28,867 bases of DNA from the IMG/VR virus record IMGVR_UViG_2660238462_000003. One strand, given 5' to 3'. Position 1 is the stretch's first letter; every line of letters starts with the position of its first letter. The notes beneath the pieces were generated by a model. That model searched no databases. It had not been told where the DNA came from and saw only the letters and a list, made by a program, of their open reading frames with translations. Shown one piece after another: positions 1-21,475 of the stretch. Made by a program: the position numbers and the translations under genes. The stretch is from a virus. Its lineage: Duplodnaviria; Heunggongvirae; Uroviricota; Caudoviricetes.

Positions 1-258
1 ATGGCAATTTATTCTCTTGTTGATGAAAACGATTTGCGCACAATGAAGGACATTGATCGGTTCATTCGTGAAAAAGAGTGCATAGCACTTACCACGCTGG
101 CAAACTCAACACGCTGGAAAATGGAGCAGGCAGGTAAATTCCCGCGACGTATCAAGATCGGTGAACGTGCTGCAGGGTATCGACTTTCAGAGGTTCAGGC
201 ATGGATCCGTGGTGAGTGGCATCCTGGATGGAAACCTGGAAAAACAAAACAGCAATAA
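1..258 (+). CDS. AlpA-family winged-HTH DNA-binding protein (phage regulator / excisionase-like)
   Basis: 85 aa ORF; motif ...KFPRRIKIGERAAGYRLSEVQAWI typical of AlpA/Xis-like HTH; followed by terminator; true start could lie upstream of window or at an internal Met. Confidence 0.7.
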   Translation: MAIYSLVDENDLRTMKDIDRFIREKECIALTTLANSTRWKMEQAGKFPRRIKIGERAAGYRLSEVQAWIRGEWHPGWKPGKTKQQ

Positions 259-270
259 CCAGTAAATAAT

Positions 271-296
271 GCCCCTCATCACGAGGGGTTTTTTGT
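271..296 (+). terminator. Rho-independent terminator after alpA-like gene
   Basis: GC hairpin cccctc-atcac-gagggg (272-288) followed by T-run ttttttg. Confidence 0.55.
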
Positions 297-314
297 CTAT
301 AAGGTAAAAACGCG

Positions 315-893
315 ATGAATAAAAATATTGCCGTGACGGGCAAGGGGTACGCTCGTCCAGTGAAAAAATTCTGCGATATTCGTGATCTCGTCGTTCTGCG
401 CTTTGATAGTGTGAACGTTCGTGTGGTGTATCTGAACGGCGATCCGTGGTTTGTTGCAAAAGATGTTTGTGCTGCGCTGGAACTAACCAATTCGCGTACG
501 GCGTTGCAGATGCTTGATGATGATGAAAAGGGAGTAAATTTAACTTACACCCCAGGAGGAAATCAGAATATGAGAATTATCTCTGAGTCAGGTTTCTACA
601 AACTAATAGCCCGCAGCCGCAAAGCAACGACGCCTGGCACATTTGCTCATCGTTTCAGTAACTGGGTATTCAGAAATGTGATACCAGGTATCAGAAAAAC
701 GGGGACTTATGGTATCCCGTGGGGTGCATTACAGGATTTTTCCCGCCGTAAAGAGCAATATCAAATAAGTGCCAGCGAGAAGGGGAGGGAGCTACAGGCA
801 TGTAAGCGCAAAAAGCGTGAGCTGGAGGAAGAAGAAAAAACGCTGATACGTGAATATCAGCCTGAGTTTTACTTTGGTAACCGCATTCAGTGA
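315..893 (+). CDS. BRO-N domain protein (phage antirepressor-like) with charged coiled-coil C-terminus
   Basis: 192 aa; N-terminal ...FVAKDVCAALELTNSRTALQMLDDDEKG...SESGFYKLIARSRKA... resembles BRO-N/KilA-N family; C-terminal KRKKRELEEEEK. Confidence 0.6.
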   Translation: MNKNIAVTGKGYARPVKKFCDIRDLVVLRFDSVNVRVVYLNGDPWFVAKDVCAALELTNSRTALQMLDDDEKGVNLTYTPGGNQNMRIISESGFYKLIARSRKATTPGTFAHRFSNWVFRNVIPGIRKTGTYGIPWGALQDFSRRKEQYQISASEKGRELQACKRKKRELEEEEKTLIREYQPEFYFGNRIQ

Positions 894-902
894 CAAAACA
901 AA

Positions 903-923
903 GGCGACCGCAAAAGGGTCGCC
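903..923. terminator. Stem-loop (possible bidirectional terminator)
   Basis: ggcgacc-gcaaaag-ggtcgcc perfect 7-bp stem just after BRO-N stop; no clean T-run. Confidence 0.35.
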
Positions 924-1226
924 AGTGGGAACAAGGGAAAACAAAAGCATCACCAACAATGCCACATTTGCGGCTGGTGGGCAATGTGATCAGTCAGATT
1001 TGGTTCGTTCCAAGGTTTGCAACGAGAGCTTTTTCCTGTGCTCTTTAAGGAATTTCTCAAGAGCAAACGAACAAGGTGCGAATCTTTCTGATTCATGTTC
1101 ATGCGCTATATTTTTGCGTCGTCTCTTACGAGTTGGTGATGGTGTTTTGGTTGATTCTGTGTCGCTCATGGTGCTGTCCTGTAAAGCAATGCGCCTGCGT
1201 TCCTCAAACTATGGCGCTGATATTGG

Positions 1227-1532
1227 CTATTCATGCTCTTTGACCTTGCGTCGCTGGAGTTCTTCACGCGCGACGGTGACGAGTTGCCCGATCTCCTCGG
1301 CTGCTTTGATGCCGATTTGTTCGACCTTAGCCAGGGCATCCAGTGACGACACAAGGGGATTTTCTCCGCTGCCTTCTGCTTGGCGGCGGGCTATTTCTCC
1401 GCGCATGGCGGTTACGATAAATCCGGCATTGCTTTCACCGTCCAGCTTAACGGATTCCATCCCTTGCATAACATCTAGTGGGACTCTGACAGTTGTCAGT
1501 TGTGATTTTGCGTTTTTGTTAGCCGTTGCCAT
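1227..1532 (-). CDS. Small ribbon-helix-helix-like / DUF3950-like putative regulator (candidate island repressor)
   Basis: 101 aa; strong SD (AGGAG) 8 nt upstream; N-terminal TTVRVPLDVMQGMESVK...GFIVTAMRGEI looks like beta-strand + helix RHH; divergent from the replication operon. Confidence 0.5.
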   Translation of the reverse strand: MATANKNAKSQLTTVRVPLDVMQGMESVKLDGESNAGFIVTAMRGEIARRQAEGSGENPLVSSLDALAKVEQIGIKAAEEIGQLVTVAREELQRRKVKEHE

Positions 1533-1593
1533 TTCTGAAACTCCTAATCATCGGTGTGTTTCAGTATACACAAAAAAAGAAATACAAAAAGCC

Positions 1594-1630
1594 TTGACGT
1601 GTGTTTCATGCGCTCATAACATGAAACACA
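1594..1630. promoter_or_regulatory. Promoter-like TTGACG with overlapping perfect 10-bp inverted repeat operator
   Basis: TTGACG at 1594-1599; gtgtttcatg (1601-1610) and catgaaacac (1620-1629) are exact reverse complements separated by 9 bp; sits in the divergent region between the 1227..1532(-) gene and the 1913(+) operon. Confidence 0.4.
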
Positions 1631-1912
1631 CCGAAAGGATTGTTGAAATACAAAGAGCAACGCCCCGCAGTGCTGGGAACACATACGGGGCGTCTAACCA
1701 ACAACGTAAACTAGGAGCCGTTATGGTTGCTGTAAATCATATACCACACCTTGTACACACACAAACGGCCTTTGTGTGGCGTTTTCTGGCACTGAGTGCC
1801 GGAGAATCTCAAATCATCCACGTAACCGCCTGGACGGAACGCGAAGCGCGTAGCCGTTGCCCGTCCGGTTGTGTTGCTGTATTCGCTGCAAAAATCCGCC
1901 AGGGAGTGAGTC

Positions 1913-2098
1913 ATGCTTAAAACCTTCCGTGTATTTGCCCGAGCTGTTAACCCAATAGGCCACACAATTGGTATCGCTCAGAATGTGAAGGCTGTTAATG
2001 TTCAGACGGCTATTGCTGCGGTGAGAAGCGAATCATCAGAATATGGCTTATCACAAGTCATTATTTCAGCAGTGTATGAATTAAAAGAGGTGCATTAA
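1913..2098 (+). CDS. Hypothetical small protein (61 aa), first gene of replication operon
   Basis: SD GGGAG upstream; stop overlaps next start (TAATG). Confidence 0.4.
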   Translation: MLKTFRVFARAVNPIGHTIGIAQNVKAVNVQTAIAAVRSESSEYGLSQVIISAVYELKEVH

Positions 2099-2289
2099 TG
2101 CAGGAAATTACATTACACGAAGCCGCTGAACGTGCGCACCAGACAGAAATTATTTGCCGCCTTCTTGAGGTATACCCGAACAAAATTACAGATGCTGATA
2201 TATCCGCACTGGCGAGCCTACTGGCGCGTCTTTCGGGAAGTGTCGCTAGTTTTTTGATTGAGGAAGAAAGTAAGCTGGTGGGGGATTAA
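2098..2289 (+). CDS. Hypothetical small protein (63 aa)
   Basis: Translationally coupled in operon; no recognisable motif. Confidence 0.4.
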   Translation: MQEITLHEAAERAHQTEIICRLLEVYPNKITDADISALASLLARLSGSVASFLIEEESKLVGD

Positions 2290-2511
2290 ATGAATACAGA
2301 ACGGGAAGTCTTTTTTAAATTGTTAGCATGTGCAGAAAGTTCATTAACTTTAAATAATTCAGCAAAAGCAATATTAAATATGTGGCTTGATTGCATAAAT
2401 GACAATGAAGATGCAAATATTGCTTATGGCCTGTTGTCACTTATTGATGAATCAGCAGAAAAACTCAATGACGCAATAAATAGTGCCCTGCTATCAAATA
2501 AGTCGAGTTAA
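2290..2511 (+). CDS. Hypothetical small protein (73 aa), AT-rich codon usage
   Basis: SD GGGGGA upstream; composition markedly more AT-rich than neighbours. Confidence 0.4.
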   Translation: MNTEREVFFKLLACAESSLTLNNSAKAILNMWLDCINDNEDANIAYGLLSLIDESAEKLNDAINSALLSNKSS

Positions 2512-2528
2512 GTCGAGGAATAAATAAT

Positions 2529-2828
2529 ATGGAAATGAAAAATTCTGGCTTTATTGCCAGCGGCCCCGCTCGACCTGAATTTATGAACGGCGATATTTAC
2601 CGCGATAAATACGGCGGCACGGTAACGATTAAAGGCGTGGCAGAACGGCGCATCACTTACCGCCGTGAGGGGTATAGCTATGACTGCGTGATGCCTGTTT
2701 ATCAGTTCCGGCGTGATTTTCCCCTGGTATATGCCGCACCCCGCAGTAAGCCCATCAGCAGGGAAAAAGCGTGGGGAAATATCCAGAAAATGAAAACCAT
2801 GATTAACGGATTCAGAGGTAAAAAATGA
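2529..2828 (+). CDS. Hypothetical protein (99 aa) translationally coupled to primase
   Basis: SD AGGAA upstream; stop overlaps primase start (ATGA). Confidence 0.45.
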   Translation: MEMKNSGFIASGPARPEFMNGDIYRDKYGGTVTIKGVAERRITYRREGYSYDCVMPVYQFRRDFPLVYAAPRSKPISREKAWGNIQKMKTMINGFRGKK

Positions 2829-4579
2829 AACTGGCACCGAACGTAAAACAGCAGTCACGCGGCATAAAACACAAAGGAACAGAAGTCATTATTTTTGCGG
2901 GTAGTGATGCCTGGGCACACGCGAAACAATGGCAGGAACATGATGCGCGTATGGCCGGAGATAATGAGCCTCCTGTGTGGCTTGGGGAGCAGCAGCTATC
3001 CGAACTGGATAATCTGCAAATTGTGCCGGAAGGCCGAAAATCAGCACGCATATACAGGGCCGGATATCTTGCGCCTGTAATGATAAAGGCGATTGGTCAG
3101 AAGCTGGCGGCAGCAGGCGTACAGGATGCAAATTTTTATCCTGAGGGTATGCACGGCCAGGAGGTGCAGAACTGGCGCGAATATCTGGCCCGTGAACGCC
3201 AGAATCTTTCTGATGGTCTGGTCATTGAGCTTCCGGTAAAGCAAAAGGCGCAACTTTCGCAGATGGCGGACAGTGAGCGCGCGCAGTTGCTTGCCGATCG
3301 CTTTGATGGCGTTTGCGTACATCCTGAAAGTGAAATCGTTCACGTATGGCGCGGCGGGGTATGGTGTCCGGTCAGCACAATGGAACTTAGCCGCGAAATG
3401 GTGGCGATCTATTCAGAGCACAGGGCCACTTTCAGCAAGCGCGTAATCAATAACGCCGTGGAAGCGTTAAAAGTTATTGCCGAACCAATGGGCGAGCCGT
3501 CTGGCGATTTGCTGCCGTTCGCCAATGGTGCGCTTGACCTGAAAACGGGGGAATTTTCCCCGCACACGCCGGAGAACTGGATCACCACGCACAACGGCAT
3601 TGAGTACACGCCACCAGCACCAGGGGAGAACATCCGCGATAACGCGCCAAACTTTCATAAATGGCTTGAGCACGCAGCCGGAAAAGACCCGCGCAAGATG
3701 ATGCGTATATGTGCCGCGCTGTACATGATTATGGCGAACCGGTACGACTGGCAGATGTTTATTGAGGCCACCGGAGACGGCGGGAGCGGTAAAAGTACAT
3801 TCACACACATAGCCAGCCTTCTGGCAGGGAAACAGAACACGGTAAGCGCTGAAATGACATCGCTTGATGATGCTGGTGGACGTGCGCAGGTTGTCGGGAG
3901 TCGTCTTATCGTCCTGGCTGACCAGCCGAAATATACAGGCGAAGGAACGGGCATCAAGAAAATCACAGGCGGCGACCCCGTGGAAATTAACCCGAAATAT
4001 GAAAAGCGTTTCACGGCGGTAATCAGGGCGGTGGTGCTGGCGACCAACAACAACCCGATGATATTCACCGAACGGGCCGGAGGTGTGGCACGTCGTCGCG
4101 TGATTTTCCGTTTCGACAATATCGTCAGTGAGGCCGAAAAAGACAGGGAGCTACCGGAAAAGATTGCGGCTGAAATCCCCGTTATTATCCGCCGATTGCT
4201 GGCGAACTTTACCGACCCTGAGAAGGCACGGGCTTTACTACTGGAACAGCGTGACGGTGATGAAGCACTGGCAATAAAGCAACAGACGGATCCGGTTATT
4301 GAGTTTTGCCAGTTCCTGAATTTTCTGGAGGAAGCGCGCGGCCTGATGATGGGTGGCGGTGGTGATTCAGTGAAGTACACGACCAGGAACAGCCTTTACC
4401 GCGTCTATCTGGCGTTTATGGCATACGCGGGCAGGAGCAAACCGCTAAACGTGGCTGAGTTCAGCAAGGCCATGAAGCCAGCGGCGAAAGTTTACGGGCA
4501 TGAATATATTACGCGAAAAGTTAAGGGAGTAACGCAGACCAACGCAATTACAACAGACGATTGCGACGCGTTTTTATAA
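2825..4579 (+). CDS. P4-family / D5-type primase-helicase (satellite replication protein)
   Basis: 584 aa; Walker A GDGGSGKST and surrounding D5_N/primase-C-like architecture; followed directly by iteron array. Confidence 0.85.
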   Translation: MKLAPNVKQQSRGIKHKGTEVIIFAGSDAWAHAKQWQEHDARMAGDNEPPVWLGEQQLSELDNLQIVPEGRKSARIYRAGYLAPVMIKAIGQKLAAAGVQDANFYPEGMHGQEVQNWREYLARERQNLSDGLVIELPVKQKAQLSQMADSERAQLLADRFDGVCVHPESEIVHVWRGGVWCPVSTMELSREMVAIYSEHRATFSKRVINNAVEALKVIAEPMGEPSGDLLPFANGALDLKTGEFSPHTPENWITTHNGIEYTPPAPGENIRDNAPNFHKWLEHAAGKDPRKMMRICAALYMIMANRYDWQMFIEATGDGGSGKSTFTHIASLLAGKQNTVSAEMTSLDDAGGRAQVVGSRLIVLADQPKYTGEGTGIKKITGGDPVEINPKYEKRFTAVIRAVVLATNNNPMIFTERAGGVARRRVIFRFDNIVSEAEKDRELPEKIAAEIPVIIRRLLANFTDPEKARALLLEQRDGDEALAIKQQTDPVIEFCQFLNFLEEARGLMMGGGGDSVKYTTRNSLYRVYLAFMAYAGRSKPLNVAEFSKAMKPAAKVYGHEYITRKVKGVTQTNAITTDDCDAFL

Positions 4580-4589
4580 TTTTTTGTAA

Positions 4590-4815
4590 AAGCCATCTAC
4601 CCCATCTACCTGAACAAAATAAACGCATATTATTCAACATGATAAGTGGGTATAGGGCTAGGTAGAAGGCTAATAAAAGCTCTCTACCTCTTCTACCTGA
4701 TTTTATCAGTTTCAGGTAGCAGGGTAGACGGCAGGTAGAGGAGTCAAAAAGCTATCTACCCGCTGAAAGCCGCGCCATTACTGACATGATGAGCATTCGG
4801 GTAGATGGGTAGAGG
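4590..4815. repeat. Iteron array, putative satellite replication origin
   Basis: At least 11 copies of (A/T)CTACC / GGTAG(A/T) core in both orientations (e.g. catctaccccatctacctga, ctctacctcttctacctga, tcaggtagcagggtagacggcaggtagagg, gggtagatgggtagagg); AT-rich flank; immediately 3' of primase. Confidence 0.6.
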
Positions 4816-4864
4816 GGGGGAGGCACAACTAAAAACTTTTTAAACGAGGGGGGGGTGAAAATAA

Positions 4865-5179
4865 ATGCGCATACATAAAAATCACTTAATAAACATGCCA
4901 GCCGAAAACATGAATCAGGGGCGACAAATGACCAAAATTCGCAGAGACAGAACACAGGCAAAATATAAAGCGTTAGACATGACAGAGCTTTCCTTAAAGG
5001 TGGCAATCAAAGCGATAGACCACCACACACGGGCAGGATACGCGAAGGAACATCCCGACCTGATAAGCGCATTCATGACCACAGCAGCGGCAAACTTTGC
5101 CACGCTGACAGAACGGGAGATTGCCGAAGCGGAACAGGTGACAACCATCAATGTTAAAACCGGAGAGCAGACAGCATGA
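4865..5179 (+). CDS. Hypothetical protein (104 aa; alternative start at 4919)
   Basis: ORF with stop overlapping SSB start; purine-rich SD-like sequence upstream of both candidate starts; G8 tract immediately upstream. Confidence 0.4.
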   Translation: MRIHKNHLINMPAENMNQGRQMTKIRRDRTQAKYKALDMTELSLKVAIKAIDHHTRAGYAKEHPDLISAFMTTAAANFATLTEREIAEAEQVTTINVKTGEQTA

Positions 5180-5625
5180 CAGCACAGATAGCGGCTTACG
5201 GGCGGCTGGTGGCTGACCCGCAGTTAAAGACCACCAGCAAAGGGACACAAATGGCGATGGCGAGTATGGCGGTTCCCCTGCCGTGCAGCCAGGCAGATGA
5301 CGGAACGGCGACGATGTGGTTATCCGTCCTGGCGTTTGGCAGACAGGCCGACGCACTGGCAAAACACCACAAAGGCGAACTGGTGAGCGTGGCGGGTAAC
5401 ATGCAGGTAAGCCAGTGGACAGGCCAGAACGGCGAAACGCGGCGGGGCTGGCAGGTTATCGCAGACAGCGTAATCAGTGCGCGAACGGCGCGACCGGGCG
5501 GCAAAAAAGGCCAACAGGGGCAGGCTACTGACGAACTGAACAGAGCAAAACAACAGGCAGATCAGCAAGGAAGCCAGCCACCAGTGGGAGATAATGAGCA
5601 ATGGGGAGATGATATCCCGTTTTAA
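5176..5625 (+). CDS. Single-stranded DNA-binding protein (SSB-like, divergent)
   Basis: 149 aa; OB-fold-like N-terminus alignable to E. coli SSB, Q/G-rich linker, C-terminal acidic tail ending DDIPF. Confidence 0.75.
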   Translation: MTAQIAAYGRLVADPQLKTTSKGTQMAMASMAVPLPCSQADDGTATMWLSVLAFGRQADALAKHHKGELVSVAGNMQVSQWTGQNGETRRGWQVIADSVISARTARPGGKKGQQGQATDELNRAKQQADQQGSQPPVGDNEQWGDDIPF

Positions 5626-5642
5626 ATATTGCCAATAAAAAA

Positions 5643-5667
5643 GGCCGGAAAAAATAAATTTTCCGGC
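5643..5667 (+). terminator. Stem-loop between ssb-like and capsid genes (possible attenuator)
   Basis: ggccggaaaa-aataaa-ttttccggc inverted repeat; no T-run. Confidence 0.3.
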
Positions 5668-5841
5668 ATGCTACATAAATCCCGACCAAAGGGAGTGAAG
5701 ATATTAACACTAATTGTCCGCACTGAAGTTGTCACCCCAAAACTTTATACAACATTGCACTCGGTTGCATGTGTTCGCATGACAAATATCGGTGGTAGCA
5801 TATATCCACAATTATTTTTAATGAATGCAAAGAGGATGCGT

Positions 5842-6882
5842 ATGGTTGATTTATATTCGCCTACTCAGCTTGTACAGGTGGTTAATGCTGTAGATGTACA
5901 AAAACAACTAAATGCGTTGTTTACCAGTTTGTTTTTTACTCGCTCGGTAATGTTTGAATCGCGCGATATTATTCTTGATACAATCGACGATCCAAATATC
6001 CCAATTGCAGCGTTTTGTTCTCCTATGGTGGGTAGTAAAGTTTCACGTGACGAAGGGTACGAATCAAAAACAATTCGTCCAGGCTATATGAAGCCGAAAA
6101 GCAGCATTGATCCAAATAAGTTAGCTGTGCGCCCTGCTGGTGTATCACCTGAGCAATACAATGCTTTTGGGGCACGTAATATTAAAGTTAAACAGGCGAT
6201 TGTAAATCAGGCTAAAGCTATTCGTGCACGTATTGAATGGCTTGCTGTTCAGGCAATCACAACGGGGAAAAATATCATTGAGGGCGATGGTATTGAACGT
6301 TATGAGCTGGACTGGAATATAAAACCACAAAATATCATCACTCAGTCTGGCGGTACTGAGTGGTCAGGTAAGGATAAAGAAACTTTTGATCCAAATGATG
6401 ATATTGAGAGCTACGCAGAATTTAGTGAGGGCGTCACTAATATCATCATTATGGGTGGTAATGTATGGAAGAAATACCGTTCATTCAGAGCGATAAAAGA
6501 GGCTTTGGATACCCGTCGTGGTTCTAATTCCGAACTGGAAACGGCCCTTAAAGACCTTGGTGATTCGGTGAGTTTTAAAGGGTATATGGGCGATGTTGCG
6601 ATTGTTGTTTACAGCGGGCGTTATACCGACGAGGACGGAACAGAAAAACATTTCCTTGATCCTGATTTGATGGTGCTTGGCAATACGGCTCTTCAGGGGA
6701 TTGTCGCCTATGGCGGTATTCAGGATCCGGAGCTAATCCGAATGGGGCTGACTAAAGCCGAACTTGCACCGAAAAACTATATTGTGCCTGGTGATCCGGC
6801 TATTGAATATGTGCAGACACATTCAGCACCACAGCCAATACCGGCCCGCATCAATCGTTTTGTTACCGTTCGCATTGGCTAA
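5842..6882 (+). CDS. Major capsid protein, lambda gpE family
   Basis: Shared blocks with lambda gpE as recalled: NITQSGGTEWS, DTRRGSNSELETA, GDVAIVVYSG, MVLGNT, PGY.KPK; start chosen at ATG 5842 (SD GAGG 6 nt upstream; ORF opens at 5629); about 347 aa vs 341 for gpE. Confidence 0.85.
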   Translation: MVDLYSPTQLVQVVNAVDVQKQLNALFTSLFFTRSVMFESRDIILDTIDDPNIPIAAFCSPMVGSKVSRDEGYESKTIRPGYMKPKSSIDPNKLAVRPAGVSPEQYNAFGARNIKVKQAIVNQAKAIRARIEWLAVQAITTGKNIIEGDGIERYELDWNIKPQNIITQSGGTEWSGKDKETFDPNDDIESYAEFSEGVTNIIIMGGNVWKKYRSFRAIKEALDTRRGSNSELETALKDLGDSVSFKGYMGDVAIVVYSGRYTDEDGTEKHFLDPDLMVLGNTALQGIVAYGGIQDPELIRMGLTKAELAPKNYIVPGDPAIEYVQTHSAPQPIPARINRFVTVRIG

Positions 6883-6891
6883 GGGGGAGCA

Positions 6892-7233
6892 ATGGCTACT
6901 CATTACACTGAACTCATGGCTGGCACTGAAGCACTGGTGACTACGCTGGGGATATTTTCAGCTAATAAAGGGGTAATTCCTGCATTTACGCCACTGATGC
7001 AGGAAGATGCAACAGGTGCACTGGTGGTATGGGATGGTTCGAGCGTAGGTAAAGCGGTTTATGTTTCCGCTGTACAAATCGACACAGCGAAAAAAACACA
7101 GGCACAGGTTTATAAGACAGGTGTTTTAAATGTTGATGCTCTGAACTGGCCTGAGTCTGTAAAAGAACTGTCGGCAAAGGTTGCCGCGTTTGTTGGCTCA
7201 GGTATTTCTGTTCAGCCGCTGGCTCGTGTGTAA
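6892..7233 (+). CDS. Head decoration protein, lambda gpD family
   Basis: 113 aa; PAFTPLMQEDATGALVVWDGSSVGKAV and WPE...AFVGSGISV align with lambda gpD; strong SD AAGGGGGAG. Confidence 0.7.
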   Translation: MATHYTELMAGTEALVTTLGIFSANKGVIPAFTPLMQEDATGALVVWDGSSVGKAVYVSAVQIDTAKKTQAQVYKTGVLNVDALNWPESVKELSAKVAAFVGSGISVQPLARV

Positions 7234-7244
7234 AGGGGGATACA

Positions 7245-7628
7245 ATGCAGAATCATTACAATGACCTTAAGCCAATTGCCGAAATGATGTATCCGGATCC
7301 AGCAGTAGAGGAATTAAAGGCTATTGCTGACAAAATGCGTTTAAGTGAACGCCTTGTTGATATGAATCAGGTGATGGAACTTACTACCCTTAGCCGTCGC
7401 ACATTGCTAAACCTTGAGGCTAGTGGAGAGTTCCCGGAGCGTGTGCAGGTTACGGAAGGGCGTAAGGCCTGGTATTTAAGTGAAGTGATCGACTGGATAA
7501 ACAATATTCCTCGATCTTCTGAATATTGCCGCGTACCTGTCCCAAAAAAGCCAGATGCGGCGCTATGCCTCAAGATTGAGCGTGTACGTCGCAATGCACG
7601 GGATGGTCGCTATAAGTTGATTGGTTGA
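7245..7628 (+). CDS. AlpA-like winged-HTH DNA-binding protein (second copy) immediately upstream of cos
   Basis: 127 aa; MNQVMELTTLSRRTLLNLEASGEFPERVQV...AWYLSEVIDWI matches AlpA/Xis-like HTH; strong SD AAGGGGGA. Confidence 0.6.
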   Translation: MQNHYNDLKPIAEMMYPDPAVEELKAIADKMRLSERLVDMNQVMELTTLSRRTLLNLEASGEFPERVQVTEGRKAWYLSEVIDWINNIPRSSEYCRVPVPKKPDAALCLKIERVRRNARDGRYKLIG

Positions 7629-7650
7629 TGAAATTAGGGCCCGTTCTGGC

Positions 7651-7830
7651 TGGCGGGTCCTTTCCGGCGATCCGGTAGGCTACGGGGCGGCGACCTCGCG
7701 GGTTTTCGCTATTTATGAGCCTTTTTCGGGTGCTGGTGGTGGTTTTGTTGTTCGCTCTATCTCTATGAATAAAAAGGAAAAGATAAAGCCAATACACCAA
7801 CCTGAAACATTACTTAAGTGGGGATATTGA
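7651..7830 (+). other. Lambda-type cos site (cosQ - cosN - cosB)
   Basis: 7685-7696 GGGCGGCGACCT equals the lambda cohesive end; following CGCGGGTTTTCGCTATTTATGA matches the lambda left end; preceding GGGTCCTTTCCGGCGATCCGGTAGGCTACG closely matches the lambda right end (cosQ); downstream cosB region diverges. Confidence 0.8.
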
Positions 7831-8300
7831 TGAAATCGCACCTGATGAACAAAAAAAACATGGCGCAAAGCTGCCGTGTAAGTGCGACAGCGTTCGACAA
7901 GTGGGGAGTGACTCCCGTTGAACGTAAAGGCCGCGAGGCGTTTTATGATGTTGCCAGCGTAATAGACAATCGGGTTAGCAATGCAATTAACCAGATTACA
8001 GACGACAAAGGCGAGATTGATGATGATGAACTCCTACGAGTCAGGATCAGATTGCTGACAGCACAGGCAGAGGCGCAGGAGCTTAAAAACGAGCGCGAAC
8101 GCGGCGACGTTATTGATACAGCGTTTTGTATATACGTGCTTTCAAAATTGGCGAGTCAGATTTCTTCAATCATGGACAGCCTGCCGCTTGCCATGACAAG
8201 GAAGTTTCCCGACATGAAGCCGTCTATGCTGGATGGACTGAAAAAGAAGTTATCAGAGCCTGTAACGCATGCGCAAAACTTGACGAAAACATACCGCTGA
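7830..8300 (+). CDS. Terminase small subunit, lambda Nu1 family (in-frame part; C-terminal domain continues in -1 frame to 8371)
   Basis: RLLTAQAEAQELKNERERGDVIDTAFCIYVLSKLASQISSIMDSLPLAMTRKFPDMK aligns with lambda Nu1; SD GGGGA 5 nt before ATG 7830; -1 frame 8246-8371 encodes EVIRACNACAKLDENIPLMLSDYLMETAG matching the Nu1 C-terminus. Confidence 0.8.
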   Translation: MKSHLMNKKNMAQSCRVSATAFDKWGVTPVERKGREAFYDVASVIDNRVSNAINQITDDKGEIDDDELLRVRIRLLTAQAEAQELKNERERGDVIDTAFCIYVLSKLASQISSIMDSLPLAMTRKFPDMKPSMLDGLKKKLSEPVTHAQNLTKTYR

Positions 8301-8382
8301 TGCTGTCCGATTATCTGATGGAAACTGCCGGAAACGTACCGGATAAGTTGCAGCCGAATAAAGATAAGTAACGTAGTACGCT

Positions 8383-8664
8383 ATGACTGAATCCGAAATA
8401 CTGCGATTAATCCGCCGTGCTTGTGGAATCAGCAAGCAGCATGACGAACAGGCCACGCAGCCGGACAGCGTGACCGCAGATAATTATGTGCGTGTAGTGG
8501 CTGAGGTGATGCGCCGTGACGGTATTGAGCTTAACGGCGTGGATATGCGCAACATACGAACAAGAGTCCTTGAGTTGCTGGCATATCGTCGCCGTTCTCA
8601 ACAACGGAGGGAGAGCGCGAAAAATACTTACCAGTGGAAGAAGCCGGAACGATTGCGGCGGTAA
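8383..8664 (+). CDS. Hypothetical basic protein (93 aa)
   Basis: ORF directly after terS; Arg-rich C-terminus; weak SD; no recognisable family. Confidence 0.35.
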   Translation: MTESEILRLIRRACGISKQHDEQATQPDSVTADNYVRVVAEVMRRDGIELNGVDMRNIRTRVLELLAYRRRSQQRRESAKNTYQWKKPERLRR

Positions 8665-8679
8665 CTTGCTGATATTCCC

Positions 8680-9060
8680 GATAACGCAAAATTGCGCTGG
8701 CTGACTTGTTGCATTGCAAAAAGTTAAGCAGGAAGGCACGGCCTGTAAGATGGGATGCAGTAAGTAGTTCAAGGCTACCTTGTGCTGGCACGCACAGTTA
8801 AGCCGTCGGTGCTGGATATCCCCCACTGGGGGAAAAGCTGGCTACATCCCTCACATCTGAGGACTGATAACGCGACATTGCGCTGGCTGGCAAAGTGCAA
8901 AATTGCACGATGGCCTAACCCATTGATTATTTCGAAAACCTGCAATGCAGGAAATCGGGGAAGTAAGCCTAAGCTATTGATTGTTTCGAAAACCCCCATT
9001 GGGGGATGTCGGGAAAGTAAGACTAACCCATTGATTCTTCCACAATCCTCAATTTGAGGA
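8680..9060. repeat. Non-coding region of short palindromes and degenerate direct repeats
   Basis: Direct repeat gataacgc(a/g)a(a/c)attgcgctggctg at 8680 and 8866; palindromes cgcaaaattgcg, ttgcattgcaa, cccccactggggg, gtgcaaaattgcac, cctgcaatgcagg, cccccattggggg, cctcaatttgagg; three roughly 55-bp units each starting (c/t)cattgatt(n)tt(t/c)c. Confidence 0.5.
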
Positions 9061-9479
9061 GGCCGGAACGTCTACATAGCTGCATCGCCGTAATGATGAT
9101 TCAGCCCACCAGCCAAATCAGCACAGCAACGACAGAATAGCCCGACACAGAAAAACCACGAATATGGGGTTTTTGTTATGACATGGTCATGATGACCACT
9201 CATACAAAACAGGTAAAGCCCACCAGCCTGATTAAAGGTTAACCGGAAAAAAGCCAGGTATCCAATCTCGATATGGGGATCCCTATATCGACATTAACGC
9301 CCACTAAAACTGTGCATATATGCATAGAAAAAGCATCCACCAGCTTTATGACGGATGCCGCTCATCTTATAAATAATCGTGTATTGCAGTGTGTATTGCG
9401 ACTCCTTTAAACGATAGGTCTGAGCATTCGTAATGTACTGTTTTTAAATTTTATTTTTTCCTGTCTTTTCATAAAGGCG

Positions 9480-9707
9480 ATGTATGCCGCCACCATTGAG
9501 AGTGAGCTGGATACGCAGTCAGCGATGGATTTTATTCTGGGCGCGAACAGTCAGGAGCAGCGGGAAAGGCTGACCGGCTGGATTGGTGAAATTGCCGCGT
9601 ATTACGCCGCAGCGCCGGTCCGGCTGGGAGGCGCAAAAGTACCGCACCTGATGCCGGGGGACTCACTGAACCTGCAGACGGCTCAGGACACGGATAACGG
9701 CTACTCC
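9480..9707 (+). CDS. Hypothetical protein, 3' end lost in scaffold gap
   Basis: ORF MYAATIESELDTQSAMDFILG... running into the N-run; unrecognised. Confidence 0.25.
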
Positions 9708-9717
9708 NNNNNNNNNN
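9708..9717. other. Assembly/scaffold gap (10 N)
   Basis: Run of 10 n characters. Confidence 0.95.
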
Positions 9718-10680: not shown

Positions 10681-10953
10681 TTATTCGCTTTGGCGCGAGT
10701 TTTTTAAAGTCCGGATGACGGTGTTAATACCAATTTTCAGTGTCCTGGCGGTATCGCGAACCCCGGCACCATTAAAGGCCATTTCAGTTATCCGCTCTTT
10801 CATACCCGGCTTACGTGCTTGATAAGTATAAGTGAGCTGAAACACACGGTGGCAGTCACGGCAGCGAAATCTGTCACGGCCTTTAGGGTTCTGACCATGG
10901 CGGTAAACCTGAGCTGACTGACAACGGGGACAATGAATATTAACTCTGGCCAT
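10681..10953 (-). CDS. insA: IS1 InsA-like zinc-finger/HTH protein
   Basis: 90 aa; CPRCQS...CRDCHRVFQ zinc finger and HTH GINTVIRTLKN typical of IS1 InsA (divergent from K-12 IS1). Confidence 0.8.
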   Translation of the reverse strand: MARVNIHCPRCQSAQVYRHGQNPKGRDRFRCRDCHRVFQLTYTYQARKPGMKERITEMAFNGAGVRDTARTLKIGINTVIRTLKNSRQSE

Positions 10954-11432
10954 GAGATAACCTCAAAAGCCCGTATTATACATCAGACTCAACTAATTAG
11001 AGGCATCACCATAGAACATATGTATGGCATATTATCCACCTGATATCATTGGGGTTACACCAGGTAAGTATAGGTGGGTAATCAATATTCGCCAGTTCAA
11101 CAATAAGGAAAATCTCATTGCATCACAACTATAAAAGCATGTGTTTAACTCGCAAAAAATCATTAAACTAATCTGTTATATTATAATAGCTGCGTGCAAT
11201 AATAATATTATATGCTCTTAATATTCGCTTGAAATATCTTTATATAAAAACAGATTGAATAAAATATTTTGGGGCTGGTATATTTACCAACATTAAATTG
11301 CATCTCAATATTTTCTTCAGCGTGAACAGGATTTTTATACAAACTGACACTATGGGTATCATAGTGTAGTTTTTACGATTGTAAATATCCTGCATGCAGG
11401 AACTCATCACTTTCAGATGATATCGCATACAG

Positions 11433-12392
11433 TTAATTCACCATCAGTCTTAAAGCCAGTTCTTCCGGATAGGGATCGAAGTAATTCTGTGTAAGCAAGT
11501 AATCATTAGGATACTCACCCAGATAATGCTTCAGCAGAGTCAACGGCGCAAGAAGAGGCAATGTGCCAGAACGATAGTTAAGTATAACCTCGCTCAACTC
11601 TTTACGCTGGCGTGTACTTAAGTAGTTACTAAAATACCCCTGTATATGCATCAGCACATTCGTGTGATTTTTACGTGATGCAGGTTTTATGAGAATCGCC
11701 ATCAGCTTATCACGATACACCTCAAAGAATGATTCAAGGTCCGCCCACTCGTGTATTGCAGCCACAAATGGTCCCATATCTTTATAGCCTGCCTGACTAT
11801 GCGCCAACAACTGAAGCTTATAACGACTATGAAAAGCTAATAACTCTCTTCTTGATAATTTCTCCTTGTAAAGGTGATTGAGCTCATGCAAAGCAAAAAC
11901 TCTTTCAACAAAATTCTCACGAAGCACTGGATCATGTAATCGCCCATCCTCTTCAACCGGTAGCCAAGAAAACTTTTCCATCAAAGTGCTCGTAAATAGT
12001 CCCACTCCATCTTTACGACCTCGATTACCATTTTCATCATAGACACGCACGCGCTCCATGCCACAGCTGGGAGATTTAGCACAAACCACAAACCCCGATA
12101 CATCCTTTAATTTGTCCATATAAGAACGACTAAACTCTGTCATTCTCTCTGTCACATCCTCATTCTGGTCGTGGCTGAAACACATCCGTATATTTCCTTG
12201 CGTCGAGCGCACAAGACGTAGAGCAGGACGCGGAACTGGCAGCCCTATAGCCATTTCCGGACATACTGGTCTGAATGTTACCCATTCCACTAATTTGTCC
12301 ATTAAAAAGTCAGCTCTTTTGTGACCACCATCAAAACGAACAGCAGAACCGGCCAAACAACCGCTGATTCCAATCACAGGTTTTTTTATCAT
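11433..12392 (-). CDS. DUF523/DUF1722 (YbgA-like) family protein
   Basis: 319 aa; strong SD GGGGGAGGA; N-terminal Cys-containing DUF523-like region plus C-terminal DUF1722-like region (from memory of family features). Confidence 0.55.
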   Translation of the reverse strand: MIKKPVIGISGCLAGSAVRFDGGHKRADFLMDKLVEWVTFRPVCPEMAIGLPVPRPALRLVRSTQGNIRMCFSHDQNEDVTERMTEFSRSYMDKLKDVSGFVVCAKSPSCGMERVRVYDENGNRGRKDGVGLFTSTLMEKFSWLPVEEDGRLHDPVLRENFVERVFALHELNHLYKEKLSRRELLAFHSRYKLQLLAHSQAGYKDMGPFVAAIHEWADLESFFEVYRDKLMAILIKPASRKNHTNVLMHIQGYFSNYLSTRQRKELSEVILNYRSGTLPLLAPLTLLKHYLGEYPNDYLLTQNYFDPYPEELALRLMVN

Positions 12393-12584
12393 ATCCTCCC
12401 CCTTGACTAATTCATTAACAGATAAACTGTGTAGTGCACGGAATAAATTGCCTTTCTGGCGTCATCACTGACAATTTTTCTGTTATGGACTATTCCTAAT
12501 ATAGTATAAAAGTTCTTTAAGTGATTGGTCGTAATCATCTATCTTTCATACTTACCCTCAACTATCAAAAGTACAGGATTTATT

Positions 12585-13109
12585 ATGAAGTTATGGCCTG
12601 TGTTGACTGGCATTGCACTCTCTTTCACTCTTATAGCATGTAAGGCCCCGACACCACCTAAAGGTGTGCAGCCGATTACAAATTTTGACGCCAACCGCTA
12701 TCTCGGAAAATGGTATGAAATAGCTCGCCTCGAGAACCGGTTCGAACGTGGTCTGGAACAGGTCAGCGCTACTTATGGAAAACGGAACGACGGAGGGATT
12801 CGTGTACTTAACCGTGGATACGATCCAACGAAAAATAAATGGAGCGAGAGCGAAGGTAAAGCATACTTTACTGGAGATACTAAAACTGCAGCGTTGAAGG
12901 TTTCGTTTTTTGGCCCCTTCTATGGTGGCTATAATGTAATCAAACTGGATGATGAGTATAAGTATGCTCTTGTCAGTGGTCCGAACAGAGAATACCTATG
13001 GATTCTGGCAAGGACCCCAACTATTCCAGATAAAGTAAAAGCAGACTATGTGCGAACCGCTCAAAAGCTGGGATTCAATGTCAATGAATTATTATGGGTT
13101 AAACAATAA
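12585..13109 (+). CDS. blc: Outer membrane lipoprotein Blc (bacterial lipocalin)
   Basis: Lipobox LIAC; NFDANRYLGKWYEIARLENRFERGLE...KVSFFGPFYGGYNVI...YLWILARTPTI closely matches E. coli Blc; SD AGGA 6 nt upstream. Confidence 0.85.
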   Translation: MKLWPVLTGIALSFTLIACKAPTPPKGVQPITNFDANRYLGKWYEIARLENRFERGLEQVSATYGKRNDGGIRVLNRGYDPTKNKWSESEGKAYFTGDTKTAALKVSFFGPFYGGYNVIKLDDEYKYALVSGPNREYLWILARTPTIPDKVKADYVRTAQKLGFNVNELLWVKQ

Positions 13110-13136
13110 AATCCCTACCCGAAATGATACTTATTA

Positions 13137-13165
13137 GAAAAAAAACCAGCCTTTGGGGAGGCTGG
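13137..13165 (-). terminator. Rho-independent terminator downstream of Q (tR'-like)
   Basis: On minus strand ccagcctccccaaaggctgg hairpin followed by T8. Confidence 0.5.
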
Positions 13166-13265
13166 CTAAATCAGGAAACAAGCTGTTATATGATAATAAC
13201 TACGTTGCGATTCCAACATTTAAAATGTTAGACTAATGACAATCAGACAGCAACTTTTCTTTTAA

Positions 13266-13643
13266 TTATTTCGAACAATCAGCATCCATCTCCAATCGGA
13301 GATCCAACACCATCAGCATGCCCTCCACTACGCCCTCAGCTTTCTGGAGCATCCTGCCAACCCAACAATCAGATCGCCCATGCTTACGTGCAAGCGCCAT
13401 AAAAGTCATGCCGCCGACATAATAGTCCACCAATAAATCATGCAAATCGCTGTTGTTTTTTTTCAGGCGAGCCATACATCCACAAATGATCATCGCGTCA
13501 TCGTCACAGCATTGCGGGCGAGATTTGACTTTTGAAGAAATTAACCCCTTAAAACCGGCAGCAATGGACGACCAGGTCACATCTTCATGATTATTAGCCG
13601 CCCACGCTCCCCAACGCTCAAGAACCATCTGAATATCACGCAT
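13266..13643 (-). CDS. quuD: Late-gene antiterminator Q (DLP12 QuuD-like)
   Basis: [31 protein letters not shown]...[16 protein letters not shown] matches QuuD/Q82-family; ORF opens at 13658 but start chosen at 13643. Confidence 0.8.
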
Positions 13644-13728
13644 CAACTTACTCCACAAAAATCAGACCAGAACGCCAATTACAAGCAAAAATCAACAAAA
13701 CAGTATTAGTTGATTGTTATCTCTGACT

Positions 13729-13869
13729 TCATACTCCTGCTCCTGTCAGGGTTTTGGCGTAATTCTTCAGTATTCGGTAATCGGTCAAAACAGAACCGGG
13801 GAAACGATATAAGCGCAGACGCCCCCAGCGGTGGCGAAGACGTTCTGCCATATAAAACTCAAACATCAT
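13729..13869 (-). CDS. ylcG: YlcG-like small protein (46 aa)
   Basis: Minus-strand [49 protein letters not shown] between rusA and Q; not in supplied ORF track (under size cut-off). Confidence 0.45.
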
Positions 13870-14228
13870 TCATTCCCCATTTCGGTGATGGTCAGTTCCA
13901 GCCTCCCACCTTTGGTAACAGGCATCTTCACAACGCGGTAATCAACGACCTGAGCATCATCCAGCCAGAAACCTGCTTTAGTGAGTGCGTCAAAAGCGGC
14001 TTTTTGCAGATTATCCAGGTCACGGCGACGGCGATCCGGCATGTGGCACTCAATGCGGATTTTCACAGGCATAGCCAGGCCGATATCCAGCATTGCGTTT
14101 TTAATGATTCGGGCGACGTTATCGCGGTATGCCTGCCCCTCTGCGCTGACGTGCGTGCGCCCGCGATTATGGCGGTAATAGCGATTATTGCTCGGAGGCC
14201 AGGGTAATGTGATGCTGTAGGTATTCAC
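13866..14228 (-). CDS. rusA: Holliday junction resolvase RusA
   Basis: 120 aa [41 protein letters not shown]... matches E. coli RusA as recalled. Confidence 0.9.
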
Positions 14229-14515
14229 GCCTTAATAACCCCCTCTTTCAGCCAGATAACCTGTGTTCTCGCCATACCTTCCAGCGCGCATTCTTTTGCA
14301 TATGCAGCATCGACAAAATGTGTGCGGCGGTCGATTTCGTCGTGGCAGGCAGAACATGCAATGGTGGCAATCAGGTCTGGCGGTTTGGTACCGGTGCCGC
14401 ACAATCCAGTCAGCCGGATATGTGCCAGTACAGACGTTTCAGGGTTGCCATTACATACGCCAGGGATTCTTACCTGGCATTCCCGACTACGCGCTGCTTT
14501 TCTCAAATCAGCCAT
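14225..14515 (-). CDS. ybcO: YbcO-like (DUF1364) nin-region protein
   Basis: [40 protein letters not shown]...[11 protein letters not shown]; start at 14515 with SD AGGAGGAA. Confidence 0.75.
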
Positions 14516-14678
14516 GATTCCTCCTTGCTGCCAGTCGCAACCATTTTTTATCAACCAGGCTGGCGGTATATCCGAGCAGTGTTGGTATTTCGGAAGGCTT
14601 CAGCTCCGGTTTACGCTTACGACGATCTGGTACTCTGTAGATGTGTCCGTTCATGACACGAATAAGCGGTGTAGCCAT
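14508..14678 (-). CDS. ninE: NinE-family protein (56 aa)
   Basis: Minus-strand [59 protein letters not shown]; start overlaps ybcN stop (TAATG); under ORF-track size cut-off. Confidence 0.5.
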   Translation of the reverse strand: MATPLIRVMNGHIYRVPDRRKRKPELKPSEIPTLLGYTASLVDKKWLRLAARRNHG

Positions 14679-15133
14679 TACGCCTCCTGCTTGTCGCGGA
14701 GCAGCTGGAACTCGCAGCTCTGCGGAATAGTCAGGTGGCAGCCAATATTCACCGCCCAGGCTTCAACCTTACACAGGAAGACATACATCTCTCCGGTATC
14801 AAGATCGGAGGTATGGCGTAACGACTGGATAGTGGTGATATCACCGGTTACGACATCAACCAGGTCTTTGGTTTCATAACCGAGATATGTGTGTTTGAGA
14901 GCATCTTTTACCCAAGCTGGAGTGGCGAACGTTTTACCCTTGCTGATGAGGTATTCACTGATTTCGCTGTACCACATGTGGCTGAGTGCATTCTGGGAAA
15001 GACTGCGTCTCTCGCGCCACGGTTTAAGCACCATGCGAAAGCATTTGCCGTCCTCCAGATAAGGCTGGATCTGCCGACCGATAGCGGTGAAGTTACCGCG
15101 ATGCAATTTGATACCATCTTGTGGGAGGTTCAC
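14678..15133 (-). CDS. ybcN: YbcN-like nin-region protein
   Basis: 151 aa ORF resembling DLP12 YbcN; position upstream of ninE-ybcO-rusA. Confidence 0.75.
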
Positions 15134-15408
15134 GCTTCACCTCCGCAGAGGTCAAACGTTGGATGCAAGATATCGCAGGTGCATTTCTGCATCTGTGACT
15201 GGTTGAAAGGTGTTCTGATTGTCGTTTGCACTTTGAGTCCCCTCAAAGCGCAGAAGTCACCGGAGTTGTTCAGGCTCCGATGACATGATTATGGCGAGTT
15301 GATTATGATGAATCAATAGGTTCTTATGTCAAATGAACACTAGATCCAAAGGAGGGTAACAATTATCATAGCCAATGAGATTAATCTCATTTTTAATAAG
15401 GAAATTTC

Positions 15409-16827
15409 ATGAAATATTTCTCAACTGGTTTTTATGTTTCAAACTCCACATCTCTAGCTGAGATCTTTAATGAATGTTTTTCTTGGGTAAACGACTCACC
15501 ACATACAACTTTTATTCCAGCACAATTAGTATGTGATTATAAAAGCGAGGAGTACTTCATAGAGTCTAAAAATGAAAGAATTGATATAATAACTTATAAA
15601 AACAAAGATACTAGTTTAGGCTGTTTTAGGTATTCGAAAATATCTGAGCCACACAAATGGGTAACAGATATTTCAATTAATAAAAATCTCAAAACTGATA
15701 CCATGTGGATTCAGGTGGAATCTAGCGTTGTAAGCCAAGATGCAGCTTATCTAGCCCCGCAACCTAAGAAACCATTAGTTGTTATGAGATTGATTGATAA
15801 ATTTTCTGGTGGTCTTGATGATATTTTCAAGGTGTCAGTCGAACCTCATTCCTTAGATGATACTGATGAACATTTAAATATAGCAGCTAAAGTTATAAAT
15901 GGTGAAACTGACAACAGACTACCAATAATATACGTTAGCTCCAAGTATTTTTTTAATGAACATGCTCACAATATCATCCCAGAACGCCTTGCAAGAAAGG
16001 TATGCGGATTAGCACATGTATTAATTGAGCCTAGCAATAGACTATTTTCTATTAAGCTAAAAAATGAGACAAATGCTAAAAATGCCTATGCTGGTGCTGT
16101 TGGTATCTATTGGCCACGGGGTCAAAATATCAGTTTTTATCGCCGTGGTGAGAAAACCGCAAAAGAATTTGAAGATGAGTTATTTGATGATGTTGTAAGA
16201 GCTACGACTACAATGGCTCCTGTCTCAGATAGTGGATGGAGTGAGATACAAACCAGAAAAACGAAAGACTCTATTAACTCACTCAAAGAAAGAGGAGAAT
16301 ACACACGCGAACTGATGGCGCTTTACGAAGCCGATAATGTTGCGAAAGATGACCAAATAGAAGATCTTAAGCATAAGATCTCCTCTTTAGAGCACAGAGT
16401 ACGCACTCTTCAATCACAAGCTTCAGCCCAAGGAAGCATTGTGCTTAATGCTGGTGAAGAGACTGATTTTTTTGATGGAGAAATCAAAAATATAATTATT
16501 GACGCACTAAAAACTGCCATAAAAAATAAAAATGAATTTGGTAGAAGCTACCATATCTTATCATCCCTAATTGCCAATAATGAATACAATAAAGAAACCG
16601 AGAGTCGCCGCCAATTACTTAAAAGGACTTTAACAGGTTACAGAAGCATGGATAGCGCAACACAAAGAAATTTAAAGGACTTAGGTTTCAGTGCGTCAAG
16701 CGATGGAAAACACTGGAAGTTAACATATAATGAAGACCCTCGATATTCCTATATTTTACCTAAAACAGGAAGTGACCACAGAGGTTCTTTAAATGCTATC
16801 TCGGATATAGCAAACATTATTTTCTAA
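15409..16827 (+). CDS. Hypothetical 472-aa protein, AT-rich moron between nin region and ren
   Basis: Long ORF with SD AAGGAAA; much lower GC than flanking genes; central coiled-coil-like segment (EDLKHKISSLEHRVRTLQSQ); no recognised motif. Confidence 0.55.
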   Translation: MKYFSTGFYVSNSTSLAEIFNECFSWVNDSPHTTFIPAQLVCDYKSEEYFIESKNERIDIITYKNKDTSLGCFRYSKISEPHKWVTDISINKNLKTDTMWIQVESSVVSQDAAYLAPQPKKPLVVMRLIDKFSGGLDDIFKVSVEPHSLDDTDEHLNIAAKVINGETDNRLPIIYVSSKYFFNEHAHNIIPERLARKVCGLAHVLIEPSNRLFSIKLKNETNAKNAYAGAVGIYWPRGQNISFYRRGEKTAKEFEDELFDDVVRATTTMAPVSDSGWSEIQTRKTKDSINSLKERGEYTRELMALYEADNVAKDDQIEDLKHKISSLEHRVRTLQSQASAQGSIVLNAGEETDFFDGEIKNIIIDALKTAIKNKNEFGRSYHILSSLIANNEYNKETESRRQLLKRTLTGYRSMDSATQRNLKDLGFSASSDGKHWKLTYNEDPRYSYILPKTGSDHRGSLNAISDIANIIF

Positions 16828-16835
16828 TAAATTTC

Positions 16836-16861
16836 AATAGCACTCACAAATGAGTGCTATT
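16836..16861. terminator. Hairpin between convergent moron genes
   Basis: aatagcactca-caaa-tgagtgctatt perfect 11-bp stem. Confidence 0.4.
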
Positions 16862-16878
16862 GTTGCCACTGAATTACT

Positions 16879-17133
16879 CTATTTAAATTCAACTTTTATC
16901 CCTTTGTTTAGCAGGGCATCAGAAACTGCCTTTTTTGTAACATTTATCCCTGCAAGCAATGCTTTATGCATTGGTCCCTTAAAAATTTCTACTTCTTCTT
17001 CAGTGAGTTTAGGCAATGTAATATAAATAACATCTTTCATCTGCTTGTTTTTATAGCATGAGCTTCTTGTGTGCTTACAATCGATATTTTCTTTATTTCC
17101 CAAAACATCATCCCCTTTATAATTCAGTTCCAC
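16879..17133 (-). CDS. Hypothetical small protein (up to 84 aa; non-ATG start likely, or 53 aa from internal ATG), AT-rich
   Basis: ORF convergent with the 472-aa gene; first codon at 17133 is GTG; weak SD. Confidence 0.3.
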   Translation of the reverse strand: MELNYKGDDVLGNKENIDCKHTRSSCYKNKQMKDVIYITLPKLTEEEVEIFKGPMHKALLAGINVTKKAVSDALLNKGIKVEFK

Positions 17134-17197
17134 ACATCAATTATTTAGTTATCACGAATGTCGTAAAACTAAAATTAGTAACAATAATTGCTCATAC

Positions 17198-17485
17198 CTA
17201 CTCTCTTCCATATAAAGCCAACACCCGCTTCATCGCGGCACTTTGACGACACTCCTTAAAAATCAGATTCGTGCTCACCTTTCCTTCCCGTTCTTCTCTG
17301 GTAGCGAACCGGTAATACACCGTTCGCCAGACCTTACCATCAACGACCAGGATTCCTGACCGCGCCATTTTAGCCGCAGCCTGATTTATGCTGGTTACGG
17401 TTGCGCCTGTTACCGCGGCAACGTCCTGCGCACAGAAGTTCTTATGAGTCCCCAGGTAATGAATAATTGCCTCTTTGCCCGTCAT
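17198..17485 (-). CDS. ren: Ren protein
   Basis: MTGKEAIIHYLGTH...VTSINQAAAKMAR...GKVWRTVYYRFATREEREGK... matches lambda Ren as recalled; immediately downstream of P. Confidence 0.8.
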   Translation of the reverse strand: MTGKEAIIHYLGTHKNFCAQDVAAVTGATVTSINQAAAKMARSGILVVDGKVWRTVYYRFATREEREGKVSTNLIFKECRQSAAMKRVLALYGRE

Positions 17486-19109: not shown

Positions 19110-19195
19110 AATTCCTCCCGCAATGAGTGTGTTACGATTTGCACCTGAAAGTCGGTTCTGTTCCCGCAGACCGACTTTCGCCATTTCTGAACCTG

Positions 19196-19735: not shown

Positions 19736-19804
19736 AATTGACTCCTTTAGTTTGAATTGACTGTTAAGTTGATTGCTTATTGTTAAAGAGCGTGAAATGG
19801 AAAT

Positions 19805-20035
19805 TTAAGCTGCGTTCTTTTCGGTGTGTGGAAACAACTTCGGAAGATCCGGGCGAATCTGGTATGCCTTCACAACTCCACCAGTAGCCGTAACAATGCT
19901 GCCGACATGTTCAGGGGATACCTTTGCTTTGTTGTGAAGCCACTTATAGACGGCCTGCTGTGAAACTTCGCAGGCATCGCCTAGTTTCTTTTGTGAACCA
20001 ACGATATTGATCGCTGTTTTGATTGCTGGGTTCAT
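19805..20035 (-). CDS. Cro-like HTH regulator
   Basis: 76 aa; HTH GSQKKLGDACEVSQQAVYKW; divergent from cI across operator region; SD GGAGG. Confidence 0.65.
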   Translation of the reverse strand: MNPAIKTAINIVGSQKKLGDACEVSQQAVYKWLHNKAKVSPEHVGSIVTATGGVVKAYQIRPDLPKLFPHTEKNAA

Positions 20036-21439: not shown

Positions 21440-21447
21440 TAATCATA

Positions 21448-21475
21448 CCCGGCAACCGCGCCGGGTTTTCTTTTC
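21448..21475 (+). terminator. Rho-independent terminator after lipoprotein gene
   Basis: cccggc-aaccgc-gccggg followed by ttttctttt. Confidence 0.6.

Follow-up and report, generated by a model that had tools for sequence, protein, structure and literature searches.

Helper-embedded phage-inducible chromosomal islands (PICIs), which lie in prophage late genes and occupy portal-gene (B:Phage_portal_2) sites among others, have already been described (PMC10111431). TerS of phage lambda binds TerL via residues 100-181, as cited in PMC6739421. With no stimulator present, -1 frameshifting in E. coli amounted to about 0.15% on Z_ZZN tetramers, versus 0.11% background, and to about 0.3% on the best heptamers; A_AAG was the shiftiest tetramer and reached 5.6%, but only in combination with the strong IS3 pseudoknot (PMC4066793). 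Some IS elements make natural use of A_AAG, and slippage on it is a known route of incidental or compensatory shifting (PMC5009743). The locus compared here with these systems is an island terS gene split between two reading frames. It lies in the window, i.e. the whole 28,867-nucleotide stretch that was analysed, together with the following features.

1-9470, + strand: body of the phage-inducible chromosomal island, all genes intact except terS
7685-7718, + strand: cosN-type site whose 34 nt (GGGCGGCGACCTCGCGGGTTTTCGCTATTTATGA) match the left end of lambda DNA exactly
7719-7829, + strand: region between cosN and terS, island-specific, at the position of cosB
7830-8300, + strand: terS, frame-0 part, 156 aa
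8241-8245, + strand: A5 run in terS, a 1-nt deletion relative to the A6 (CTG AAA AAA GAA) of all close orthologues
8246-8371, + strand: 3' part of terS, shifted into the -1 frame and coding for the final 41 aa of wild-type TerS
8383-8664, + strand: 93-aa ORF downstream of terS, conserved and intact
9471-9707, + strand: C-terminal fragment of the portal gene of the helper prophage, cut by the N10 gap
9708-9717: N10 scaffold gap in the draft scaffold

Judged from its genes and sites, the element is a phage-inducible chromosomal island of a known kind with a lambda-type cosN, and helper dependence is predicted. The island measures about 10.9 kb. Its integrase gene lies just before the start of the window, directly upstream in the 99.9%-identical locus L034 of E. 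coli JNE23-011. The genes and sites that follow are, in order, HTH, Bro-N, Icd-like, DUF4222, D5-type primase, SSB, gpE-like capsid, gpD-like decoration, AlpA, cos, terS, and a hypothetical gene, with Pfam matches to Bro-N, D5_N/DUF5906, SSB, Phage_cap_E, HDPD, and Phage_AlpA. This is the gene order of PICIs, in which int is followed by a regulatory/Bro zone, a primase-SSB zone, and a late zone with AlpA. The C-terminal stretch of the island SSB (5534-5600) was variable, with many indels relative to E. coli APEC O2-211 (149 versus 140 aa), all in frame. The 93-aa ORF had no Pfam family match. The number of E. coli genomes with its DNA was about double that for terS, so the ORF also travels with islands that do not have this terS; many of the matches covered only positions 684-1001 of the query.

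The island is inserted within the portal gene of a prophage, as expected for a helper-embedded element. In JNE23-011, it splits the portal gene of a lambdoid prophage into an N-terminal part of 834 nt and a C-terminal part of 783 nt (6867-7700 and 18611-19393 in L034), and the order is nohD (a Nu1 homologue), terL, W, portal N-part, island, portal C-part, gpC, gpD, gpE. The portal remnant in the window comprises the first 79 codons of the C-terminal fragment. Near the right end of the island, the sequence GTGTATTGCAGTGTGTATTGC was found at 9379-9399; it recurs beside the integrase gene at the left end (7826-7846 of L034), and the two copies are probably integrase arm-type or att-flanking sites. 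A search for a clear att core repeat of the island found none. Downstream of the last island gene, three tandem 54-nt repeats (8913-9074; 100%, 80%, and 61% identity to the first copy) are also kept in JNE23-011 and could be candidate protein-binding iterons.

Beyond the N10 gap, the sequence from 9718 onward contains the essD holin, IS1, YbgA, prophage early genes, and ybhC. In the sister scaffolds from RU1 derivatives, the equivalent gap was followed by different DNA each time; adjacency to the sequence from 9718 is therefore not demonstrated. An IS1 InsA-like ORF (10681-10953, - strand) adjoins a second prophage region (11400-28867), which extends to ybhC, next to the region of the lambda attachment site. 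This second region may represent the early helper-prophage half, brought to its place by scaffolding.

Frame 0 of terS runs from an ATG at 7830, with a GTG at 7818 as possible alternative start, to a TGA at 8298-8300. The resulting 156-aa product is identical to wild-type TerS (WP_000835282.1) over residues 1-139, continues with an out-of-frame tail of 17 aa before the TGA, and ends in ...SMLDGLKKKLSEPVTHAQNLTKTYR. The -1 frame stays open to a TAA at 8369-8371 and from 8246 encodes EVIRACNACAKLDENIPLMLSDYLMETAGNVPDKLQPNKDK, 41 aa with homology to the C-terminal portion of lambda Nu1. At the junction, the sequence reads CTG AAA AAG AAG (8238-8249), with G at 8240, five A residues at 8241-8245, and G at 8246. 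The gene is thus not an intact single ORF, its frame being interrupted by the 1-nt deletion at 8241-8245. When the two frames were spliced at the junction, a protein of 180 aa was obtained that matched WP_000835282.1 at all 180 residues. Translation thus bore out the statement of the earlier note that the in-frame ORF stops at 8300 and that a Nu1-like C-terminus follows in the -1 frame from 8246.

The spliced TerS scored 85.8 bits against Pfam Phage_Nu1 (PF07471; cutoff 30), in agreement with the previous assignment of the gene to the Nu1 type. The 156-aa product alone still scored 77.9 bits with the same family and cutoff, and it keeps the Nu1 core. In BLASTP, residues 6-167 of spliced TerS aligned with residues 3-181 of lambda Nu1 at 38% identity (E = 2e-36), and LKKEVIRACN of the island protein was paired with LKRDIIKAMN of Nu1 across the junction. 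Because this collinear alignment passes straight across the junction, the match of the -1 frame to the Nu1 C-terminus, which had been proposed from inspection, is homology and not chance. Collinear homology to Nu1 that includes the C-terminal TerL-binding segment was seen only after the frames had been joined. With the Nu1 homologue of the helper prophage (annotated nohD in JNE23-011), island TerS shares 36% identity, again with the C-terminal half best conserved; it is about equally similar to lambda Nu1 and to nohD. A sequence search of the PDB with joined TerS gave no match at E <= 0.01.

As is typical of Nu1-type genes, terS lies directly downstream of a cos site. The cosN-type site is located 112 nt upstream of the terS ATG and matches exactly not only that of lambda but also the cos found in JNE23-011 in the prophage that surrounds the island. 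In contrast, the approximately 110 nt at 7719-7829 are unrelated to lambda or helper-prophage sequence, and their position points to a putative cosB. A helper-type cosN combined with an adjacent region of its own fits an island that uses the cutting site of its helper but its own TerS for recognition. In such a scheme, wild-type island TerS would bind the island-specific cosB, and its Nu1-like C-terminus would bring helper TerL to the shared cosN.

Orthologues were compared at the junction. A 1-kb query around terS matched 1,466 of 5,426 complete E. coli genomes, and the two best matches were one base longer than the query. With a 100-nt query centered on the site, the 51 closest complete E. 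coli genomes all aligned over 101 nt at 99.0%, and a match of 100% identity to this A5 query was absent from all 5,426. Each of the 51 carries A6 (CTG AAA AAA GAA GTT) and encodes one ORF of 180 aa. A scan of metagenomes with a pattern open to A5 or A6 returned 11 matching contigs, every one of them A6. In 11 orthologues sampled from E. coli, with DNA identities as low as about 84% and all annotated as terminase small subunit, the ORF was uninterrupted throughout (543 nt, 180 aa). The site itself varies among orthologues (AAA AAA GAA, AAA AAG GAA, or AAA AGG GAA) but always in one frame. More distant orthologues have CTT AAA AAG GAA GTG and CTT AAA AGG GAA GTG, and the diverged copies reading AAA AGG GAA do not have the A-run at all. 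Thus, the two-frame arrangement was absent from the 51 closest genomes, the 11 metagenome contigs, and the 11 sampled orthologues, and the frameshift, whose conservation the earlier note had proposed to check, is not conserved. Because all close orthologues are A6 and single-frame, the window terS carries a 1-nt deletion in the A6 tract. A homopolymer indel had been offered as the second option in the earlier note, and it is this option that the comparison of A5 with A6 in 51/51 genomes and 11/11 contigs supports. Another A-run at the 5' end of terS, the A8 run at 7851-7858 (AAC AAA AAA AAC, encoding NKKN), is longer than the tract that mutated and was invariant in 6/6 aligned copies.

The nearest complete genome, that of JNE23-011, differs from window positions 1-9707 by 6 SNPs and one 1-nt gap, which is the A5 site. 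The terS deletion is the only indel between the two over these 9,707 bp, and general homopolymer errors in the assembly were rejected on this ground. Of the island genes compared with those of APEC O2-211, 15 are full length in the window, and only terS is split. An intergenic G8 run at about 4846-4855 is G6 in APEC O2-211; JNE23-011 agrees with the window. Exact-sequence look-up in NCBI and Logan placed the 156-aa product on 34 contigs and the 180-aa product on at least 1,000. Ten A5 loci were retrieved, and they agree with the window at every position as far as their N10 gaps, which are slightly shifted and each followed by different DNA; the contig ends differ. All inspected NCBI assemblies with the A5 allele are strain RU1 or its lab-evolved lines, the carrier accessions (GCA_001413005.1 and neighboring numbers) being listed as E. 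coli RU1 and RU1 MA1-12, LB1-12, and BHI2-12 (PMC9638481). Exact-pattern scans of species-representative genomes, for the A5 allele or for either allele, gave no match. The recurrence of A5 in separately assembled genomes of RU1 and derived lines makes random sequencing error, a further option of the earlier note, unlikely. The distribution argues strongly that the A5 allele is a real mutation private to strain RU1 and its laboratory descendants.

The A-run at the junction had been likened to the dnaX-type slippery motif, a resemblance that did not withstand closer analysis. In the zero frame, CUG_AAA_AAG gives the heptamer G_AAA_AAG, which is not a canonical X_XXY_YYZ sequence because its first base is G. 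The canonical part is confined to the A-site tetramer A_AAG, and in the P site the tRNA would have to pair anew with GAA. The heptamer GAAAAAG is not unusual in itself, occurring 9 times in the window compared with 6.3 expected. In the region 10-14 nt upstream of the shift site, no Shine-Dalgarno (SD) sequence was found, anti-SD pairing being +0.7 kcal/mol or weaker. A weak GGAUGGA with an anti-SD pairing of -5.5 kcal/mol lies only 1-2 nt upstream, which is not a spacing that stimulates -1 shifts. The downstream stem-loop or pseudoknot that the earlier note had suggested looking for was not found either: the best hairpin downstream of the site has -5.0 kcal/mol, and the 84-nt downstream region folds no better than shuffled sequences (z = 0.16). 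Rfam at gathering thresholds detected no RNA family in the whole window and therefore no known frameshift element, and a promoter and terminator scan of 7200-9500 revealed nothing relevant near the shift site. Transcriptional slippage was rejected as improbable, since in E. coli it becomes efficient only on A/T tracts of about 9 or more. Because A_AAG is the shiftiest tetramer, some trans-frame TerS must be made from the A5 allele; a trace of wild-type TerS by -1 slippage is expected at about background level (approximately 0.1-0.3%).

Three other explanations of the split gene were considered. RU1 might truly be A6, with A5 arising as a systematic homopolymer undercall or being copied from one reference. 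The window does stem from a scaffolded draft with an N10 gap, all A5 carriers come from one project and one strain, and homopolymers are the classic site of such errors. However, A5 was found not only in the ancestor but also in 13 or more derivative genomes, each assembled separately and with differing contig ends, and in Logan assemblies made from reads. No other indel relative to the nearest relative occurs over 9.7 kb, and the G8 run was called identically in both. We therefore regard an artefact, including a systematic platform error common to all RU1 libraries, as unlikely. A real deletion with a selected role, either because low-level slippage still matters or because of the truncated cos-binding TerS, is very improbable: it would have arisen in one strain only, there is no recurrence and no sign of selection, and since TerS is needed stoichiometrically, about 0.1-0.3% of the normal level is unlikely to matter. 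Precedent does exist, as compensatory frameshifting on homopolymer indels is documented, e.g. for the G-run of the herpes simplex virus thymidine kinase gene (PMC5009743). The truncated product, with its Nu1 core kept, might also bind cos in a dominant-negative manner without recruiting TerL, thereby sparing the helper prophage and modulating the conflict between island and prophage.

Programmed -1 frameshifting of the dnaX/IS type at G_AAA_AAG, with a short cos-binding and a full-length TerL-recruiting isoform, is the reading to which we give least credence, so small is its probability. In its favor, the shifty tRNA-Lys(UUU) decodes AAA AAG, slipping by -1 restores the 180-aa wild-type protein exactly, and A_AAG serves some IS elements naturally, as stated above. 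Against these points stand the non-canonical heptamer lacking both an SD at stimulatory spacing and a downstream structure, the low expected efficiency, and the finding that no orthologue examined has the two-frame arrangement. Moreover, the sequence downstream is identical to that of alleles that need no shift. The headline of the earlier note held in one part, since alignment supports a Nu1-type terS with its C-terminus in the -1 frame; a programmed frameshift with two isoforms fell with the single-frame orthologues, which the earlier note itself had named as refuting, and the absence of a stimulator.

It is highly probable that the split of terS is a recent, ordinary 1-nt deletion private to the RU1 lineage, with no programmed recoding. 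A mutation rather than a programmed frameshift is deduced because every other copy of terS is a single intact frame. The terS gene of this lambda-helper-dependent chromosomal island would have lost one A, changing CTG AAA AAA GAA to CTG AAA AAG AAG, by an ordinary slipped-strand frameshift mutation that occurred recently in the E. coli RU1 lineage and was presumably inherited by the laboratory-evolved RU1 derivatives. Normal translation would then yield the 156-aa protein, keeping the DNA-binding and oligomerization parts and losing the last 41 residues. Because the residues removed are homologous to the TerL-binding region of Nu1, the RU1 copy of the island is probably packaging-defective; by analogy with lambda Nu1 biology, it could no longer bring helper TerL to its own cos site. 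Slippage by -1 on A_AAG would restore wild-type TerS only at about background level.

In annotation, the locus should accordingly be treated as a known island terS that is frameshifted here (pseudogene) and not as a recoding site. It is a cautionary case, as a lysine-codon A-run at a frame break mimics dnaX and the comparison of orthologues settles the matter. Otherwise, the split has little significance, as both the gene and the class of element that it affects are known. The type of island is of interest because such a satellite encodes a Nu1 homologue of its own, has the same cosN as its helper, and interrupts the helper portal gene, although this class is already in the literature.

Compared with the dnaX and IS sites, which combine A_AAA_AAG with an upstream SD and a downstream hairpin, the window terS shares the lysine codons AAA AAG at the frame change and the property that a -1 shift would give a functional product. 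It differs from them in the G at the first position and in having neither an SD at 10-14 nt, nor a hairpin, nor conservation among orthologues. The island has the same organization as the helper-embedded PICIs, i.e. int, Bro zone, primase/SSB, and a late zone with gpE-like, gpD-like, and AlpA genes, and the same type of insertion in the portal gene of a lambdoid prophage (PMC10111431). With these PICIs and with the Rpp packaging-redirection system of EcCICFT073 (PMC6739421), it also shares the combination of a helper-type cosN with an island-specific adjacent region. Rpp proteins have 144-153 aa, and EcCICFT073 and 11capE have no terS; the window protein is a full-length Nu1 homologue, and an identity as Rpp-type adaptor was therefore rejected. 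Island TerS and lambda Nu1 are collinear from the NKK motif to the C-terminus, with the C-terminal half best conserved, and both genes lie immediately 3' of the same cosN sequence. The N-terminal DNA-binding part of the island protein, which falls outside the Pfam match, has diverged, 13 extra residues are present at the C-terminus, and the protein is encoded by a satellite rather than a phage. WP_000835282.1, annotated as terminase small subunit and present in E. coli APEC O2-211, JNE23-011, and many others, resides in the same island with the same neighboring genes and cos. Its gene is unsplit, whereas that in the window is without one A of the A6 tract and is thereby divided between two frames.
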